Notes under the pieces: generated by a model
Seen by the model: only the letters and a program-made list of their open reading frames with translations
The model's database searches: none
What the model was told of the DNA's origin: nothing
Shown here: positions 3,116 through 41,657 of the stretch, one piece after another
Layout of the letters: each line of letters opens with the position of its first letter
Numbering within the stretch: position 1 is the first letter of the stretch
Program-made: the position numbers and the translations under genes
DNA from: Minisyncoccia bacterium
Lineage (GTDB): Bacteria > Patescibacteriota > Minisyncoccia > Phycocordibacterales > UBA2100
NCBI GenBank assembly: GCA_049297775.1
Contig: JBAQUX010000023.1
Span: 18 to 64,017 of the forward strand
Direction of reading: 5' to 3'
Length of the DNA: 64,000 nucleotides

Positions 3116-4888
3116 TTATTTATTTTTTTCCTCTTGTAGCGCTACTTCTTCAGCCAGGAGCACTCCACCCAATGTGCTAATCTCCGAAAACGGAATCACT
3201 TTATTGAACGCTTTCAGCATAGCATCTTCACGCATGGTGAGCATACCCTTACTGCGAATAATCTTAAGAATTTCGTCATCACCTTTTCTGTCCAAAATTG
3301 CACGCTCAACTTCGGCACTCATTCCAAATGCCTCGATAACTGCACTTCGTCCTCGCATTCCTGACGCTGACGCAGACGTTGGCTGTGGGTCGTACACAAC
3401 ATTTGGAATAGTGAAACGATATTCTGGCGGTAAATCCTTAATTGAATCTTCCATAAATAAACGCATGCTTGGTGTAACTGGTATTTCTGTTCCAGTTCCT
3501 GGGTGCAATTTACGCACCAATCGCTGTGCCACCGCAAGAATTAATGTTGGCGCAATAAGATAGGGATCAACACCCATATCTATAAGACGAGGAATAACGC
3601 CGACAGAATCGTTTGTGTGAATAGTTGAGAGTACCAAGTGACCAGTAAGCGCGGCTTGAATTGCGAGCTTTGCAGTTTCTGCGTCACGGATTTCTCCCAC
3701 CATGATAATGTCTGGGTCTTGGCGAAGCGCAGTACGCAAACCAGAGGCAAATGTATACCCAATTTCTGGACGCATTTGGGATTGATTAACTCCTTCCATG
3801 TGATACTCAACCGGGTCTTCAAGCGACATCACGTTTTCTGATTCACGATCAAGCTCATTTAACATCGAATACAATGTGGTTGACTTACCGGAACCCGTTG
3901 GACCAGAAACGAGAATAAGGCCATACGGTCTTTCGAGTGCTGTGCGAATGAGATTAAGATTTTTTTGTGAGAGACCGAGGTCAGCGAGCGGTACCACGCC
4001 TTTATTTTTATCCAAGATACGCATCACCACCTTCTCACCTTCTGGTAGTGGAAATGTAGAGACACGAAAGTCAATTTTTCTTCCGCTCACCGTTGCTGAA
4101 AATCTACCATCTTGCGGTTTTCGTCGTTCGTCAAGCCTCAGTGCTGCCAAAACTTTAATACGCGCCACGATTGCCTGTTGTGTATTTTTGGGAAGCATCA
4201 GACTTGTATGCAACGTACCGTCAACACGAAAACGCACACGCACACCCGCCTCGCTTGGCTCTATATGTACGTCAGATGCAGAACCATCTACTGCGTAGCG
4301 CAACACTGTTGCGACGATTTTTATTATCGGTGCATCCTCTTGAAAGTTTTTTGCATCCTTTGGTCCTTGTGCTTGCTTATCAAGTTCGGCCTGAACGTCA
4401 ACTTGGTCACTTGACGCCTCGGTCGCCAATTCATCGAGCGCGTTCCCGACATCTCCAGTAAGCCCTCGATACATGGCGAGCACTTTTTCAAAATCTGCCT
4501 TAGTTATATGAAAAACTTTGTACGGCAAGCCAGCCTTACGGGTAATAAAGTTAAGTGCGTCTACTGCCTCAATGTCATCAGGACTCACAAAACCCACTTC
4601 GAGCACCCCATCTTCAATTCCGAGCGCAACAAACTTATAGTGATTTGCTGATTCTTCTGGAATATTTTGCAAAATTTGCAACGCAATTTTACTATCACCT
4701 ATAGTACGAGTTGGGATACGAACACTGCCACCCTGCTCTGCAGCTAATATTTCTTCATCAGAAAAACCGCGATTACGGAGAGCTGTATCGATATCTATTT
4801 TTTTGGACTCAACCTCTGACCGTACTTCTTCGGCAACTTTGGGTGATATAAGTCCTTGAGCAATAAGTATTGAGAGCGGGTCTTCCAT
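3116..4888 (-). CDS. pilB: Type IV pilus assembly (extension) ATPase PilB/GspE family
   Basis: 590 aa with N-terminal GSPII_E_N-like region. Walker A GPTGSGKSTT, Asp box, Walker B MVGEIRD, His box of secretion ATPases. Confidence 0.9.
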   Translation of the reverse strand: MEDPLSILIAQGLISPKVAEEVRSEVESKKIDIDTALRNRGFSDEEILAAEQGGSVRIPTRTIGDSKIALQILQNIPEESANHYKFVALGIEDGVLEVGFVSPDDIEAVDALNFITRKAGLPYKVFHITKADFEKVLAMYRGLTGDVGNALDELATEASSDQVDVQAELDKQAQGPKDAKNFQEDAPIIKIVATVLRYAVDGSASDVHIEPSEAGVRVRFRVDGTLHTSLMLPKNTQQAIVARIKVLAALRLDERRKPQDGRFSATVSGRKIDFRVSTFPLPEGEKVVMRILDKNKGVVPLADLGLSQKNLNLIRTALERPYGLILVSGPTGSGKSTTLYSMLNELDRESENVMSLEDPVEYHMEGVNQSQMRPEIGYTFASGLRTALRQDPDIIMVGEIRDAETAKLAIQAALTGHLVLSTIHTNDSVGVIPRLIDMGVDPYLIAPTLILAVAQRLVRKLHPGTGTEIPVTPSMRLFMEDSIKDLPPEYRFTIPNVVYDPQPTSASASGMRGRSAVIEAFGMSAEVERAILDRKGDDEILKIIRSKGMLTMREDAMLKAFNKVIPFSEISTLGGVLLAEEVALQEEKNK

Positions 4889-4891
4889 GGC

Positions 4892-5290
4892 TTACTCGGA
4901 GATTTCTTCTTGTGCTCCAGTGCGTGCGCCACGACCTTGAAATTGTACTGGTATTTCCTCAGAAATTATATCGTCATCGTTACCTACAGGGGCAAAAGGA
5001 TTTTTTCGTCCCACCGGCTCAGGAATAATTTGTTGCCCTGTATCTTTAAGCACATTAAACGCTGGATTTTGAAAAATAGTGTCATCTAGCTTAATTGTAC
5101 GCATATCCAATAGTAACTTGAGCACCTCAGAGTCATCATTATTTTCAGTAACTACCTGGCTATTAAGTACGCCATCTGCAGACGATGTACCGAGAGTGGC
5201 ATTTTCTTCTCCGGAATTCATCGAAAGACCATACCAACCTCCGATGATGACAACGATTACTATGACTGCAATTATTATTTTATTGTTCAT
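4892..5290 (-). CDS. Small single-pass membrane protein, PilP-like pilus-assembly accessory (hypothetical)
   Basis: 132 aa, N-terminal TM helix (IIIAVIVIVVIIGGWYGL), acidic C-terminus. Position between pilO and pilB. Assignment by context only. Confidence 0.4.
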   Translation of the reverse strand: MNNKIIIAVIVIVVIIGGWYGLSMNSGEENATLGTSSADGVLNSQVVTENNDDSEVLKLLLDMRTIKLDDTIFQNPAFNVLKDTGQQIIPEPVGRKNPFAPVGNDDDIISEEIPVQFQGRGARTGAQEEISE

Positions 5291-5301
5291 GGTTCAATAT
5301 A

Positions 5302-5958
5302 TTATGGAAGCCAGTATGTTCGTATCGCAACAGTAAATCTATATATTGGGTCTGTGGTATCGCGTGAACCACTTGTTGAAATACTTTGACCCTGAAGTCC
5401 GACGAGCTCTTGCGGAATTGCACCTCCTGCAGGAGCCTGTTTTGCAGTTTCAGACATAGATAATGATACAAGGTCTACAACTCGCAAACTCTGCTCGAGG
5501 TCACGCATAAAACTCACAAAATCGTCATATGTTGATGCCACGCCAAATTCAAGCACCAAGGATTTATATCGCTGGTTTTGTAATGCTGACGCTGCTTCAA
5601 TAGAGCCTGCGACTTGCGTTTTCCCCTTCTCGTCGCCATCTCTACGCACCTGCACGTTTCCAATGCGCAATCCATGCTTGGTCGCAAGCGCATCAAAATC
5701 GAGCACTAAGTGCACGTTATCTACGAAGTCTGGGAGAAATTTTTCAAGACGTTCAGTGTTTGTACCAGTAAGCGTATTATATTTTTGTGAGAGTGCATTA
5801 CCAAGCGCCTGCACTTCTTTTGCCTTAGCTAGACCTTCAGCATATTTGTCCACCTCTTTCTTTTTTGAAAGTGTAGCGTTATATGTAGGCGTTACATATC
5901 CAAAGATAAGACCGCCAGAGACAAGTATCATTATTATTGCAAGTATAAGTTTAGTCAT
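5302..5958 (-). CDS. pilO: Pilus assembly protein PilO-like
   Basis: 218 aa. Short cytoplasmic N-terminus, one TM helix, coiled-coil then periplasmic/extracellular domain. Gene order pilM-N-O. Confidence 0.6.
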   Translation of the reverse strand: MTKLILAIIMILVSGGLIFGYVTPTYNATLSKKKEVDKYAEGLAKAKEVQALGNALSQKYNTLTGTNTERLEKFLPDFVDNVHLVLDFDALATKHGLRIGNVQVRRDGDEKGKTQVAGSIEAASALQNQRYKSLVLEFGVASTYDDFVSFMRDLEQSLRVVDLVSLSMSETAKQAPAGGAIPQELVGLQGQSISTSGSRDTTDPIYRFTVAIRTYWLP

Positions 5959-5971
5959 AATGGTACATTAA

Positions 5972-6787
5972 TTATTCGCTGGTGTTTCCAAATAATCCAT
6001 CTGATGCCGGCTTTCCTGTTTGCGGTTTAGGTAACGGACGAGGTGTTGGCGTGGTTTGTTGTTGCACACCGCCTGCAGGCCTTCGGTTCAAATTTCCTGT
6101 AACGTCCTGGGGAGCTTCTTCTTCAGTGAAAGAACTTTGTGTTGCACTTGTATCATCTAGGGATTCTTCACTTCCTCCATTTTGAGCACTAAGTGCCGCG
6201 GCGACAAGTGATTCAAATTTTACTGTTTCTGGATTTAAATTTAAATTAACTGCGAACGTAACTCCTTGCGCACCGATATCCAAATCTGAGAAAATTGGCT
6301 CTTTAATAGCGTTATGCCTACTAAAAATTGACGCCTGGAGTGCAATACCGTTTACACTCGCTGCCTTCCCTTTCATTTCAACATGCAGGTCGCCTTCTGG
6401 TTTTACCGTATAGTTCACGTTGGTAAATTGTACTGACTTAAGTGTTGTCTGTTCGAGGACCTTAAAAAATATTGAAGGTGCAAGGTGAGCACCAAGTACG
6501 CCGTTTGCAGAACGGATACGCTCGTCGAGTCTCATTATTTTTGTGACGAGTGAAGGTGCAAACGCTCCGCGCGCCTTTTCGAGTTGCGCCTTTTTATCAG
6601 CCAAGTCCTTTGTAACAAACTGTTGATAGAGAAAAACTCCCGCTGAAAGCGTCCCCGCAATCACGAGGGCGATTATTCCCAAAAGCATGACCACGTCAAA
6701 TCCATCACTTCCTCCGTAGTTGCTTTGAGGAGACTCCATTGTAGGGAGTTTTGTGGGGATGAATGATGATTGAATTGGTGATTCCAT
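5972..6787 (-). CDS. pilN: Pilus assembly protein PilN-like with Pro/Thr/Gln-rich C-terminal tail
   Basis: 271 aa, single TM (VVMLLGIIALVIAGTLSAGVFLY) followed by coiled coil. Low-complexity C-terminus QQQTTPTPRPLPKPQTGKP. Immediately downstream of pilM. Confidence 0.6.
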   Translation of the reverse strand: MESPIQSSFIPTKLPTMESPQSNYGGSDGFDVVMLLGIIALVIAGTLSAGVFLYQQFVTKDLADKKAQLEKARGAFAPSLVTKIMRLDERIRSANGVLGAHLAPSIFFKVLEQTTLKSVQFTNVNYTVKPEGDLHVEMKGKAASVNGIALQASIFSRHNAIKEPIFSDLDIGAQGVTFAVNLNLNPETVKFESLVAAALSAQNGGSEESLDDTSATQSSFTEEEAPQDVTGNLNRRPAGGVQQQTTPTPRPLPKPQTGKPASDGLFGNTSE

Positions 6788-13925: not shown

Positions 13926-13986
13926 ACAACAAAGTATACTCGAATAAATGAGGAAGCACGTAGCGAAACGCTGCCTCTAGTCTTTG

Positions 13987-14071
13987 CGGAGAGAGTGAGA
14001 TTCGAACTCACGGTTCCTTGCGGAACGACGGTTTAGTAAACCGTTGATTTAAACCACTCATCCATCTCTCC
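13987..14071 (-). tRNA. Type II (long variable arm) tRNA, Ser-like, apparent anticodon ACU (unusual)
   Basis: Minus-strand sequence GGAGAGA-TG-GAT-GAGTGGTTTAA-ATC-A-ACGGT-TTACTAA-ACCGT-CGTTCCGCAAGGAACCG-GTGAG-TTCGAAT-CTCAC-TCTCTCC-G. 7-bp acceptor, 3-bp D stem, canonical T loop GTTCGAATC, long variable arm, G73 discriminator as in tRNA-Ser. Anticodon loop U33-ACU-A37. CCA not encoded. Confidence 0.7.
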
Positions 14072-14139: not shown

Positions 14140-14231
<92 letters not shown>

Positions 14232-27687: not shown

Positions 27688-27780
27688 ATATATGTATTGT
27701 ATACCCTGCATAGAAAAAAGTGGAGTTTCGTGTGCACAGTAGTCCGTTTCTCTCGCAAGGCTCTCAAGCCTAAGCAAATA

Positions 27781-27804
27781 AAATCGTGCCTTTGCACGAT
27801 TTTT
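27781..27804. terminator. Bidirectional hairpin terminator (AATCGTGC-CTTT-GCACGATT flanked by A/T runs)
   Basis: 8-bp stem with A-run upstream and T-run downstream on both strands. Located 3' of nothing on plus but upstream of the 25486-27687 gene; may insulate the tRNA locus. Confidence 0.4.
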
Positions 27805-27922
27805 CTAGTTCTCTGTCGTCACGCATAAAATTGTTGACCCAATTTTTGCGCGACCCCACCTCGCGTTTTTTGCCTTGTCGATACGACAAACAAAAACATC
27901 GCTCTGGCTTTGACCTTTATTT

Positions 27923-27948
27923 AAAAAACTCCCGCAGGGGAGTTTTTT
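27923..27948 (-). terminator. Terminator hairpin downstream of tRNA-Ile (AAAAAACTCCCGCAGGGGAGTTTTTT)
   Basis: CTCCC-GCAG-GGGAG stem flanked by A6/T6. A T-tract follows on the minus strand just 3' of the tRNA. Confidence 0.6.
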
Positions 27949-27957
27949 AAATAAAGG

Positions 27958-28031
27958 TCCACCCTCTTGGACTCGAACCAAGGACCGCGGAGGTATAAGC
28001 TCCGTGCTCTAACCAACTGAGCTAAGGGTGG
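27958..28031 (-). tRNA. tRNA-Ile (anticodon UAU)
   Basis: CCACCCT-TA-GCTC-AGTTGGTTA-GAGC-A-CGGAG-CTTATAC-CTCCG-CGGTC-CTTGG-TTCGAGT-CCAAG-AGGGTGG-A. Anticodon loop C-U-UAU-A-C. CCA not fully encoded (ACCT). Confidence 0.8.
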
Positions 28032-39520: not shown

Positions 39521-39583
39521 ATTTTACGTAAAATGCAAGCTTTTCCGGTTATTTTTAGGACGAGCTGTGGTACTATCCTACCT

Positions 39584-40471
39584 ATGAAACCAATATCCAT
39601 AGTCACACATAGTGGTACATTCCACGCAGATGATGTATTTGCAGTCGCCATGGTGAAGCTACTCTTAAAGGAAACACCACACACACTCACTCGTACACGT
39701 GACGAAGCGATACTACACAGCGCCGATTGGTTACTCGACATTGGTAACACCTATAACCCTGAAACCAAACGATTCGACCATCATATGCGAGAAGGAGCAG
39801 GGGCACGTGAGAACGGTATTCCCTATGCAGCCTGCGGTCTGGTATGGAAGCACTACGGAGAAACACTTGCGGGAAGCCCTGAAGCGCAGGAGATTGTAGA
39901 CACGGAACTCATTCAGACCATTGATGCACTTGATAACGGCTCGCATGCAGTTTCATTTAATCCGCATCTCGGCGATAGTCCGTACACCATTCGCACACTC
40001 ATCCAGCGGTCTTTCAGACCTGCGTGGAACTCCACTGAGAGCTTTGATGAGGCATTTGATAAAGCGGTTACGTACGCACAAGAGATTTTACTCCGAGAAA
40101 TACACCAAGCGTCAAGCAGTATCGCGAAACGTGCATATGCAAAAAAACTCTATGATGAGAGTGCTGATAAACGTATACTTATAAGCCCGATTGGCATTTC
40201 AGCAGGTTCATTTATTCCCTTTCCTGAAGTCAACGTAGTAATCGCACCAGACCTCTCGCGTGACGGATACTATGCAGTGCAGGCAGTGGGTGTAAGTCCT
40301 GATACCTTTGATGCGCGCGTCTACTTCCCTGAAAGCTGGGCCGGCCTTCGCGATGACGCGCTCGTGCAACACACAGGTATCGCAGGTTCTGTGTTTTGCC
40401 ACAAAGGTAGACACTTTGCAGTTGCAAATAACTTAAAGGACGCACAGCGTCTTGCACTGCTTGCAAAGTAA
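39584..40471 (+). CDS. MYG1/UPF0160 family metal-dependent hydrolase
   Basis: N-terminal IVTHSGTFHADDVFAVAMV (family signature THSGxFHADE), further His/Asp blocks (DHH, LDNGSH). Start at MKPISIV (39584) rather than the ORF-track 39533. Confidence 0.75.
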   Translation: MKPISIVTHSGTFHADDVFAVAMVKLLLKETPHTLTRTRDEAILHSADWLLDIGNTYNPETKRFDHHMREGAGARENGIPYAACGLVWKHYGETLAGSPEAQEIVDTELIQTIDALDNGSHAVSFNPHLGDSPYTIRTLIQRSFRPAWNSTESFDEAFDKAVTYAQEILLREIHQASSSIAKRAYAKKLYDESADKRILISPIGISAGSFIPFPEVNVVIAPDLSRDGYYAVQAVGVSPDTFDARVYFPESWAGLRDDALVQHTGIAGSVFCHKGRHFAVANNLKDAQRLALLAK

Positions 40472-40497
40472 GCGTGCCAGTTTGCTATACTAGGCAC

Positions 40498-40938
40498 ATG
40501 TCCATATTGGAGAATAAAAAAGCGCGACTCAACTATACATTTCTCGATACTTTCGAGGCAGGCATTGAACTGCACGGTCATGAAGTAAAATCATTGCGTG
40601 ATGGCAAAGGTAAACTTGATGGCGCACGTGTGGTTGTGCGCGGTGGCGAAGCGTACGTAGTAGGTATGTCTATTTCTCCATGGCAAGTGGCAAACACTCC
40701 TAAGGATTACGAGCCCGAACGCACGAGAAGACTCCTTTTGCACACAAAAGAAATTCTTGCCATTCAGCGTGCGGAGCAAGAGCAAGGTTTGACAGCTATC
40801 CCTATTTCATTGTATAATAAAAAACGATTCTTGAAGCTTTCCGTGGTTATCGCAAAGGGTAAGAAAAAGCATGACAAGCGTGCTAGTATTCGCGAACGAG
40901 AAGTGGCTCGCGATATCAATCGTTCTTTGAAAAGTTAA
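40498..40938 (+). CDS. smpB: SsrA-binding protein SmpB
   Basis: NKKARLNYTFLDTFEAGIELHGHEVKSLRDGK...LLLHTKEI...KGKKKHDKR is colinear with E. coli SmpB ([32 protein letters not shown]...GKKQHDKR). Start MSILENK (40498). Confidence 0.9.
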   Translation: MSILENKKARLNYTFLDTFEAGIELHGHEVKSLRDGKGKLDGARVVVRGGEAYVVGMSISPWQVANTPKDYEPERTRRLLLHTKEILAIQRAEQEQGLTAIPISLYNKKRFLKLSVVIAKGKKKHDKRASIREREVARDINRSLKS

Positions 40939-40986: not shown

Positions 40987-41402
40987 GGGGGTGACTAGTA
41001 TCGACAGAGAGATTCGGTTTTCGTATGTGCACAGGTGTTTGAACATACACTCAAAAGTTCACAATCTAAGTGCAAAAAATTCTGCACAGGCAGTCGCTTC
41101 ATCTTTCAAGGTGAGCGACTTCCAGTTCGCTTACGCTCGCGCGTAGTCTGAAATTTTTTAATTTCAGGTGAGCTTCGGCTCGCGACCGTTATCTTGGTGG
41201 ACGTCTGATAAGCCACGGATAATGTAATACTATCGGAATCGATATACTGCCCTGTTCACGCAGTAGTCTAAATAATAGAACTCGCGTACTACGATTTTGC
41301 ATACCTTTGCCCGTAGTCCGTTAAACATTAAGGTACGCTACCTGTTGTAGATGCGTACGGAAATCCTCTTTTGGACTGGGGTGCGACTCCCCACACCTCC
41401 AC
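40987..41402 (+). ncRNA. ssrA: tmRNA (ssrA), one-piece
   Basis: 5' end GGGGGTGACTAGTATCGACAGAG matches tmRNA consensus GGGGnUGAnnnnGnnUCGACnnG. 3' end GGGG-TGCGACT-CCCC T-arm followed by CACCTCC-A-C. 5' GGGGGTG pairs with 3' CACCUCC, giving a G3-U70 wobble (Ala identity). Candidate tag ORF after CAGUC: GCU UCA UCU UUC AAG GUG AGC GAC UUC CAG UUC GCU UAC GCU CGC GCG UAG (ASSFKVSDFQFAYARA*). Immediately downstream of smpB. Confidence 0.8.
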
Positions 41403-41415
41403 ACATACATAACAA

Positions 41416-41436
41416 GGCGCCCTTATGGGCGCTTTT
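41416..41436 (+). terminator. ssrA terminator hairpin GGCGCCC-TTAT-GGGCGC + TTTTGTTG, centre of a longer inverted repeat
   Basis: GC stem + U-tract 14 nt after the tmRNA 3' end. Flanked by a ~21-23-bp imperfect IR (41393-41415 vs 41435-41455). Confidence 0.65.
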
Positions 41437-41657
41437 GTTGTATGTGTGGAGGTGTAGCGAGGCATCTGCATGCCTCGCATGGGGAGTCGCAAGGCGGAGC
41501 TATGTTTTTGTTTGTGTAATCACAAGGCAAAAACTGCGAGCTGGGGTCGCGAGATTTTTTCGTCAGAAAAAATACTTGTGACCGACTCAGCTTCGAAATG
41601 TATGGGCAAAAGACTTGGTTACTTGTTGCCCTTTTTTCCCCTGATATACTCCCTTTC

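Follow-up and report, generated by a model that had tools for sequence, protein, structure and literature searches.

Candidate family of small noncoding elements with gene-tailored antisense arms behind tmRNA and tRNA genes of a Minisyncoccia bacterium and its relatives

The 3' ends of ssrA genes, which encode transfer-messenger RNA (tmRNA), are common attachment (att) sites, and group I introns are found in tmRNA T-loops (PMC11915505). Theta ribozymes, which are minimal ribozymes of the hepatitis delta virus (HDV)-like type, adjoin phage tRNAs of many isotypes and have been proposed to act on the 3' trailer (PMC10879173). Here we have analyzed a 64,000-nt stretch of contig JBAQUX010000023.1 from a Minisyncoccia bacterium (the window, by which we mean this whole stretch), in which ssrA is followed by an inverted partial copy of its own 3' end, a hairpin that interrupts this copy (HP0), and a conserved core. 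Our results suggest that the inverted arm, HP0, and the following ~100 nt represent one copy of a family of small, protein-less structured elements. As judged from sequence comparison, the family combines a conserved RNA-type structure, linkage to the 3' ends of tRNA and tmRNA genes, and an antisense arm tailored to the individual gene. The element is best read as either a small noncoding insertion element or a tRNA-linked RNA module.

With the integrase islands that occupy tRNA and tmRNA 3' ends, the element shares apparent insertion at the T-loop, a regenerated 3' end borne by the element, a displaced direct repeat, and tandem arrays at the same site. Unlike these islands, its unit is ~150 to 230 nt long and harbors neither an integrase nor any open reading frame (ORF), and it is found behind all tRNA types with a target-matched sequence, the target in antisense, and an RNA core whose pairs covary. 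Like the theta ribozymes, it is a small predicted structured RNA situated 3' of many tRNA isotypes on the same strand. However, its core is a three-way or tandem-hairpin fold whose covarying helices are nested, whereas theta is a nested double pseudoknot; the core starts ~45 to 60 nt after the gene, whereas theta ribozymes lie within ±5 nt of it; and the element is chromosomal in Patescibacteria, whereas theta ribozymes are found in gut phages. Neither the window region nor canonical copies of the element matched an HDV-family Rfam model at E values of ≤1 to 10. The group I T-loop introns (PMC11915505) resemble the element in their position at the T-loop region and in an internal sequence complementary to the flanking exon, but the element leaves its host gene complete with no need of splicing, its core is much too small, and half the copies lack a downstream exon. 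Miniature inverted-repeat transposable elements, or MITEs, and the Correia, ERIC, and BOX repeats are likewise short, noncoding, multicopy, and intergenic, with a stable RNA fold, and sometimes supply a terminator. In contrast to these repeats, the element lacks terminal inverted repeats of constant sequence and a short target duplication of set length (its repeats are 16 to 34 nt long or absent), is strictly specific to the tRNA 3' end and strand, carries an arm retailored to each target, and displays covariation that includes a conserved G·U pair. Each of these four kinds of system, that is, integrase islands, theta ribozymes, group I T-loop introns, and MITEs, thus fails at least one of the defining features tested. 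No matching family was found in Rfam 15 for the window region and five canonical copies at gathering and permissive thresholds; the permissive matches were limited to generic long-hairpin (microRNA) models and a subthreshold tmRNA_permuted match. The searchable literature, beyond whose reach many subscription papers lie, contained no description of the element, and the family therefore appears to be new to both sources.

The features of the 3' end of ssrA and of its downstream flank are listed below. Scores of the core are from R1, a covariance model of the core whose training alignment of 84 cores included both copies in the window, and L-numbers are labels of compared loci.
40987 to 41401, plus strand: tmRNA gene (ssrA), one-piece, from Rfam RF00023 and from ARAGORN after the in silico change G55T.
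41382 to 41415, plus strand: left arm, made up of the T-loop UGCGACU (41382-41388), the T-stem 3' strand CCCCA (41389-41393), the acceptor strand CACCUCC (41394-41400), the discriminator A, and the trailer.
41416 to 41436, plus strand: terminator-like hairpin at the apex of the palindrome, GGCGCCC-UUAU-GGGCGC followed by a U-run.
41435 to 41455, plus strand: right arm, part 1, complementary to the trailer and the acceptor 3' strand, with the acceptor complement GGAGGUG at 41448-41454.
41457 to 41478, plus strand: hairpin HP0, a perfect 9-bp stem with a CUGC loop, at the acceptor/T-stem junction of the antisense arm.
41480 to 41491, plus strand: right arm, part 2 (S1), complementary at 12/12 positions to the T-loop and T-stem 3' strand.
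41493 to 41583, plus strand: conserved core of 91 nt (R1, 60.9 bits, E = 5e-12).
41584 to 41588, plus strand: GACUC (distal copy GACTCAGCT, compared with GACTCCCCA in the tmRNA).
41604 to 41637, plus strand: second terminator-like hairpin, GGGCAA...UUGCCC followed by U6, in a flank common to L004.

Two inverted pairs make up the palindrome, one between 41387-41416 and 41432-41461 (30 nt, 83% complementary) and the other between 41382-41393 and 41480-41491 (12/12 complementary). Taken together, 41439-41455 and 41480-41491 are the reverse complement of 41382-41410, from the T-loop through the trailer, and the arm pairs with ssrA at 12/12 plus 8/8 positions and along the trailer. This antisense arm is interrupted at 41456-41479 by 24 nt that form a hairpin (stem GCGAGGCAT, loop CUGC, stem AUGCCUCGC), and the core begins 92 nt after the end of ssrA. 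The 131-nt segment folds with -89.6 kcal/mol, compared to -45.3 ± 3.8 kcal/mol for shuffled sequences (z = -11.7), and 0 of 200 shuffles were as stable. The repeat coordinates and the nested hairpin proposed in an earlier note on this DNA are thus borne out.

The comparison drew on 80 loci fetched by way of SmpB (identity, 55 to 63%) from genomes that represent species of Kaiserbacteria, Yonathbacteria, Paceibacterota, and other groups; tmRNAs were located in these loci. Counts of ssrA-linked copies refer to the 64 Paceibacteria species loci with sufficient downstream sequence. A subset of these relatives repeats the layout of the window, with an arm that matches their own acceptor and T-loop and, after the arm, the conserved stretch GGCGGAGCnAUG ... 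GCGAGCC ... GGGUC ... UGACC. The position of HP0 and its CUGC loop also recur in relatives; no further copy of the HP0 hairpin in the manner of REP sequences was present in the window.

The earlier note had considered an unusually elaborate bidirectional terminator, and the structure could indeed be taken for a long terminator whose stem runs into the gene by chance, as the palindrome is centered on a GC hairpin flanked by A- and T-runs. An intrinsic terminator does directly follow ssrA (41414-41435, 9 pairs, then TTTTGTTGT), but it covers only 22 of ~200 structured nucleotides, and the T-arm complement is found 45 nt after the U-run, on the far side of the second hairpin. In most relatives, the terminators are ordinary ones, with 0 to 3 gene nucleotides paired. 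Rather than being a simple terminator in all relatives, the extended structure is found in about a fifth of them, and the palindrome extension is always accompanied by the conserved core at 41493-41583, which the note had overlooked. We therefore regard this explanation as refuted and its probability as negligible. Together, the inverted copy and the hairpin within it form the 5' arm of an element family found behind tRNA genes of all kinds as well as behind ssrA.

When the window was searched with R1, exactly two copies were found, the one behind ssrA (41493-41583) and a second (27817-27908) behind a tRNA gene:
27956 to 28031, minus strand: tRNA-Ile(UAU), host of the second copy (ARAGORN, Rfam).
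27914 to 27957, minus strand: 5' part of the second copy, comprising trailer, stem, CUGC loop, stem, U-run, and trailer complement.
27817 to 27908, minus strand: core of the second copy (R1, 48.2 bits, E = 4e-9; also found by nhmmer).
27776 to 27816, minus strand: 3' tail ACAGAGAAC and a downstream terminator-like hairpin; the ACAGAGA tail recurs in the type-B copies described below.

Here, the core begins 48 nt after the end of tRNA-Ile(UAU), HP0 doubles as a terminator, and the arm consists of the trailer complement only. Copies linked to tRNA-Ile(UAU) recur in L014, L032, and L184; a tRNA-Ile with a UAU anticodon is uncommon in bacteria. The closest relative of the ssrA-linked core lies behind a tRNA-Ala gene in another organism (86% identity), whereas the two cores of the window are 71% identical, which is in keeping with insertion.

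In the 84-core alignment, the core consists of a 3-bp helix P2, a GGAGCG/CGCGAG internal loop, hairpin H2, helix P3 (GGUCG/UGACC), and hairpin H3, and the internal loop is able to form tandem G·A pairs beside GCG/CGC; R1 defines the core by P2, the GGAGC/GCGAG loop, H2, P3 (GGGUC/UGACC), and H3. The ssrA-linked core in the window has GGC/GCU as P2, a GGAGCnAUG/nGCGA internal loop with tandem G·A, and GGGUCG/UGACC as P3 with a conserved G·U and a bulged A. Over the 84 cores, 95.5% of cells are paired, compared to 73.4% after shuffling, while controls with a slid register reached 32 to 43%. Double-sided changes number 518, compared to 139 in shuffled alignments, and 22 of 29 pairs covary. The middle pair of P2, for example, is G-C in 43 copies and C-G in 40. 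One G·U pair is kept in 82 of the 84 copies, and a second pair is GC in 45 and GU in 33. In 83/83 copies, the fold of the sense strand is more stable than that of the antisense strand, by a mean of 10.2 kcal/mol. The conserved G·U pair, together with the greater stability of the sense strand, points to a core that would act as an RNA structure on the strand of the tRNA. R1 also recognized members outside its training set, namely, those in L009 (85.9 bits), L069 (70.1 bits), L050, L032, L066, L034, L049, L083, and L038.

We considered that the CUGC loop of HP0 might kiss the GCAG loop of H2 but rejected this by eye from the aligned sequences, as the H2 loop varies (AGUA, ACUU) while that of HP0 stays CUGC. 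The HDV-like, hammerhead, kink-turn (K-turn; box C/D), and group I folds, compared by eye with the covarying helices, were also rejected because their topology or conserved nucleotides did not fit. In L001 (90% SmpB identity), a block of extra hairpins of ~70 nt (~2360-2430) lies between the GCGAG and GGGUC segments of the core, indicating that this junction tolerates insertions.

Among the SmpB loci, R1 gave 16 matches, 11 of which follow ssrA in the 64 species loci. A twelfth ssrA-linked copy (L060) was detected by nhmmer only, bringing carriage to ~19% of these loci. A pattern scan of metagenomes for the core retrieved at least 120 contigs, mostly from groundwater; this sample was ascertained with a pattern derived from the element family itself, and the taxonomy of its contigs was assigned solely from labeled examples of metagenome-assembled genomes. 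In these contigs, the GGAGC motif lies 37 to 110 nt (mode, 50 to 52 nt) past a same-strand tRNA gene of almost any isotype or a tmRNA gene. R1 gave 111 matches in 100 contigs, and 90 of the 103 that could be assessed have a same-strand tRNA or tmRNA gene no more than 400 nt upstream (median, 59.5 nt). The host genes cover 18 tRNA amino acid classes and tmRNA, and some of the unlinked matches follow tmRNAs that ARAGORN does not call, as in L171. A scan of viral contigs with the core pattern returned four matches, all of them chance matches in GC-rich coding sequence with no tRNA nearby, and BLAST against phage and plasmid records revealed no similarity to the element.

The copies fall into two architectures. 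In type A (about 30 of 68), the acceptor complement is followed by the CUGC hairpin, by S1 as a 9- to 18-nt complement of the T-loop and T-stem 3' strand, and by the core, and UGACC is immediately followed by 16 to 34 nt of the host gene in direct repeat, from T-loop nt 57 onward. Type-B copies (about 35 of 68) keep a rigid spacing of 50 to 52 nt from gene end to GGAGC. Their CUGC hairpin, with its A-run, GC stem, and U-run, resembles an intrinsic terminator; complementarity to the gene is limited to 5 nt that match its last nucleotides, a distal repeat is absent, and the 3' tail is ACAGAGA. The ssrA copy in the window belongs to type A, with an additional terminator at its apex and a distal repeat that has decayed, and the tRNA-Ile copy is type-B-like.

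The arm is matched to the gene that it follows. The acceptor complement in relatives tracks the acceptor of each genome (CACCUCC versus CAUCUCC), and S1 has 0 to 1 mismatches to the host T-arm in most type-A copies, several of which share a conserved mismatch at nt 65 that leaves the junction nucleotide unpaired. Among the 21 type-A copies that are informative, S1 fits the functional proximal gene better than the distal repeat in 20, and the reverse was seen in none. This suggests that the constraint maintains complementarity to the 3' end of the functional gene and not closure on the distal fragment. Either selection or palindrome homogenization would uphold such complementarity.

These observations raise the possibility that the element is a cotranscribed, cis-acting RNA module for 3'-end formation of tRNA and tmRNA. 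Its arm would pair at a fixed geometry with the 3' strand of the gene, allowing the core to steer the cleavage, termination, or quality control of precursors that arise by read-through. The core could then be a small ribozyme or a platform for binding of a protein or RNase, and the direct repeats could be by-products of the birth of copies. The invariant strand, the rigid spacing of type B, the arm that follows the functional gene, and the RNA-type constraints (conserved G·U, tandem G·A, bulged A) are all in line with such a module, theta ribozymes at tRNA 3' ends provide a precedent (PMC10879173), and 80 of 144 tRNA genes carry the element, although on contigs that were selected for carrying it. 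We nevertheless consider a cis-acting module unlikely. It leaves unexplained the displaced 3' ends with native CCA and terminators, the tandem arrays, and the replacement at strain level that are described below. In addition, only some tRNA genes and 19% of ssrA loci carry the element, many copies have a terminator-like hairpin between gene and core, no Rfam ribozyme matches, and there is no association with an encoded CCA among tRNAs (10/80 with the element versus 21/103 without).

The arm could instead belong to a trans-acting antisense or guide RNA, a processed element that would bind the 3' half of its cognate tRNA or tmRNA and serve as sponge, regulator, or enzyme guide. The bipartite complement flanking a hairpin and tailored to each gene, the K-turn-like tandem G·A of the core, and the junction nucleotide left unpaired by the nt 65 mismatch would all suit a guide. 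However, the 5-nt complement of type B is too short for pairing in trans, the pairing in the window is perfect and leaves no target nucleotide unpaired, and neither a partner protein nor expression finds support. RNA-guided modification is not known to occur in bacteria. We regard this explanation as quite improbable.

Type-A geometry also resembles the P1/P10 logic of group I introns, which occupy tmRNA T-loops. In a T-loop mini-intron, S1 would be an internal guide that aligns the end of the 5' exon (nt 54 to 56) with the distal copy (nt 57 onward). But the proximal gene is already complete, a 3' exon is absent from the type-B copies and from that in the window, and the 86-nt core lacks group I architecture, ends in C without a terminal G, and has no Rfam intron match (RF00028). 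A mini-intron is therefore hardly credible.

Comparison of loci sheds light on how the copies may have arisen. Full direct repeats of the tmRNA 3' end are found in L066, L016, L060, and L083, and in L083, L038, L109, L034, and L066 the distal copy has an encoded CCA and its own terminator where the proximal one does not. In the window, a direct repeat of the att type is limited to 5 nt, GACUC, which we infer to be the decayed remnant of a direct repeat of the tmRNA from nt 57 onward, as in type-A copies. By analogy to L034 and L066, where a terminator follows the distal copy, the hairpin at 41604-41637 is probably the original ssrA terminator, displaced by insertion. Apparent decayed remnants of the element are present in L012, L017, L011, L025, and L081. 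Among tmRNA genes, a CCA is encoded in 1 of 12 that bear the element and in 18 of ~52 others, and its rarity in the former fits a replaced 3' end.

The locus L004, whose SmpB and flanks are identical to those of the window, has the same architecture with a different sequence variant in the ~100 nt after the arm. Its terminator stem carries a compensatory change from C/G to U/A, and in its HP0, 5 of 9 positions are changed on both arms and fully compensated. L001 has another terminator and the same inverted arm. Tandem arrays occur in L050 (three units after ssrA, 3440-3920), L171, and L100. Tandem or clustered units are also seen in L119 and L093, with up to 3 units per tmRNA and 4 to 6 per tRNA-rich contig, and in the third unit of L050, the closing helix covaries away from the tmRNA sequence (GGAGGAGUC/GACUCCUCC).

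The earlier note had also raised past integration or excision of a mobile element, and of this proposal insertion at the ssrA 3' end has held up. The specific form in which a classical tyrosine-integrase element (a prophage or island) left a scar in ssrA, the inverted copy being incidental, has not. Its appeal is that ssrA 3' ends are common att sites (PMC11915505) and that related loci have direct repeats of the tmRNA 3' end, and L038 has a 1.5-kb island. However, a Pfam scan of the 10 ORFs flanking the window ssrA within ±6 kb revealed no integrase, transposase, reverse transcriptase, or integrase remnant; the families found were DUF333, sigma-70, Big_12, ApbE, MYG1, NUDIX, and a decarboxylase. 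The internal hairpins covary, and the element lacks similarity to phage and plasmid records and to viral contigs. Moreover, the same ~200-nt noncoding unit recurs in distant lineages behind 18 tRNA amino acid classes and tmRNA, a pattern that large islands decaying independently would not produce. A classical scar is thus largely refuted and, in our view, very improbable.

The L038 island (5120-6620) follows the mini element, has two ORFs of 73 and 283 amino acids and no integrase, and is bounded by a third tmRNA 3' fragment (GAUUCUCCCCAUCUUCA). A different insert occupies the same site, 0 to 300 nt after ssrA, in L010, L020, L070, L071, and L086 (also in L014, L024, L026, L027, and L062). It comprises a trailer inverted repeat (ACUCGAYUCG...), a conserved CUCGUGGCAAGCCACC, a hairpin GCCCUGAGCGAG..GAGUCGAAYGGGC, and then a GIY-YIG ORF of ~100 amino acids. 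GIY-YIG ORFs follow the element of this study in only two loci, apparently one and the same site. In this class, the 3' flank of ssrA is a hotspot for insertion.

In the insertion reading that we favor, and to which we give an even chance, a unit comprises the 5' antisense arm, a two-hairpin core of ~86 nt, and, in about half of the copies, a direct repeat from nt 57 to the 3' end of the gene. Units would insert either between T-loop nt 56 and nt 57 or at the end of the gene, bringing a replacement 3' end and terminator and pushing the original ones downstream. At the window locus, the displaced 3' end would have decayed to GACUC, and the displaced terminator would be that at 41604-41637. Most speculatively, the antisense arm would recognize its target by pairing with the T-arm and acceptor strand, with an enzyme supplied in trans. 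As modeled, ssrA transcripts would normally end at the element-borne terminator at 41416-41436. In the predicted fold of a read-through transcript (40987-41600), the arm pairs with 41382-41401, that is, the T-loop and acceptor strand, and the tRNA-like domain is captured by the arm and abolished.

Several points weigh against this reading. No mobility enzyme lies within ±6 kb of ssrA, no neighboring protein family is enriched near ~100 copies, and no empty-site allele was recovered. The type-B copies, about half of the total, have no flanking repeat, so that insertion is putative for them. Only a fifth of ssrA loci carry the element. Expression of the element is putative, and a terminator-like hairpin precedes the core in the window and in type-B copies. 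The matching of the arm could stem from selection for an RNA function in cis or from homogenization of a DNA palindrome, and we know of no precedent for an element that carries a target-matched 3' end and an antisense arm for each tRNA.

The genomes of Patescibacteria are streamlined, at ~1 Mb, yet over half of the tRNA genes (80 of 144) on contigs selected for the element have this noncoding unit of ~100 to 200 nt behind them. The element would therefore be a highly successful tRNA-gene parasite or else a piece of tRNA and tmRNA biology so far missed in a large, poorly understood bacterial branch. An arm complementary to the functional T-arm and acceptor for every isoacceptor implies targeting, processing, or regulation based on pairing, and we know of no described counterpart. 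Tentatively, we raise the possibility, itself rather doubtful, of a nucleic acid-guided system acting on the tRNA T-arm and acceptor strand, be it a protein-less mobile RNA or DNA element that would reach any new tRNA or tmRNA gene through a rewritten bipartite antisense arm, or a guide RNA or small ribozyme acting in cis or in trans on its cognate tRNA's 3' half. If true, this would be a new class of RNA-programmed activity in ultrasmall bacteria. A ready-made covariance model for the element is now at hand.

The tmRNA gene itself and its upstream neighbor agree with what the earlier note had described, a standard one-piece ssrA with a G3·U70 pair and a tag ending in YARA:
40498 to 40938, plus strand: smpB (PF01668), 100% identical to a SmpB of "Minisyncoccia bacterium" and used to fetch the orthologous ssrA loci.
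41072 to 41146, plus strand: tag reading frame, with resume codon GCA, peptide AKNSAQAVASSFKVSDFQFAYARA, and stop TAG (ARAGORN after G55T).

The gene smpB lies 48 nt upstream of ssrA. RF00023 matches 40987-41404 on the plus strand with 69.1 bits (E = 8e-25; gathering score, 47; model positions 1 to 374). The tRNA-like domain, read directly, has a 7-bp acceptor stem, GGGGGUG/CACCUCC with G3·U70, and a discriminator A; ssrA ends at this A41401, and the CCA is not encoded, ACAC being next. The T-arm is UGGGG-UGCGACU-CCCCA, in which G55 of the T-loop is unusual. ARAGORN calls no tmRNA in the unaltered window. With G55T in silico, it calls a tmRNA at 40987-41402 with the tag AKNSAQAVASSFKVSDFQFAYARA* (coding region, 41072-41146), so that G55 is the only cause of the miss, and the earlier note was right on the boundaries, the frame, and the YARA ending. 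Judging from the tags of relatives, which end in ...AYALIA, ...AYALV, and ...GYAFA, the YARA ending reads as a lineage variant of ...AYA(L/F)(I)A. For annotators, these results are a warning that tmRNA finders miss G55 T-loops and that the 3' flanks of ssrA and tRNA genes in these genomes are not simple terminators.

The T-loop UGCGACU with G55 (41382-41388 in the window) is also present in L010, L012, L015, L020, L025, and others, and further noncanonical tmRNA T-loops in other Paceibacteria are AUCAUUC, CUCACUA, UCCGAUA, and UGCAAUU. The gene order MYG1-family (UPF0160) exonuclease-smpB-ssrA (39533-40938 in the window) is kept in L001 and L003 to L006. Elsewhere in the window, ARAGORN places a tRNA-Ser with the anticodon ACU (A34) back-to-back with tRNA-Ser(GCU), at 13986-14071 (minus strand) and 14140-14231 (plus strand), both without the element; a serine tRNA with an unmodified A34 would be unusual.

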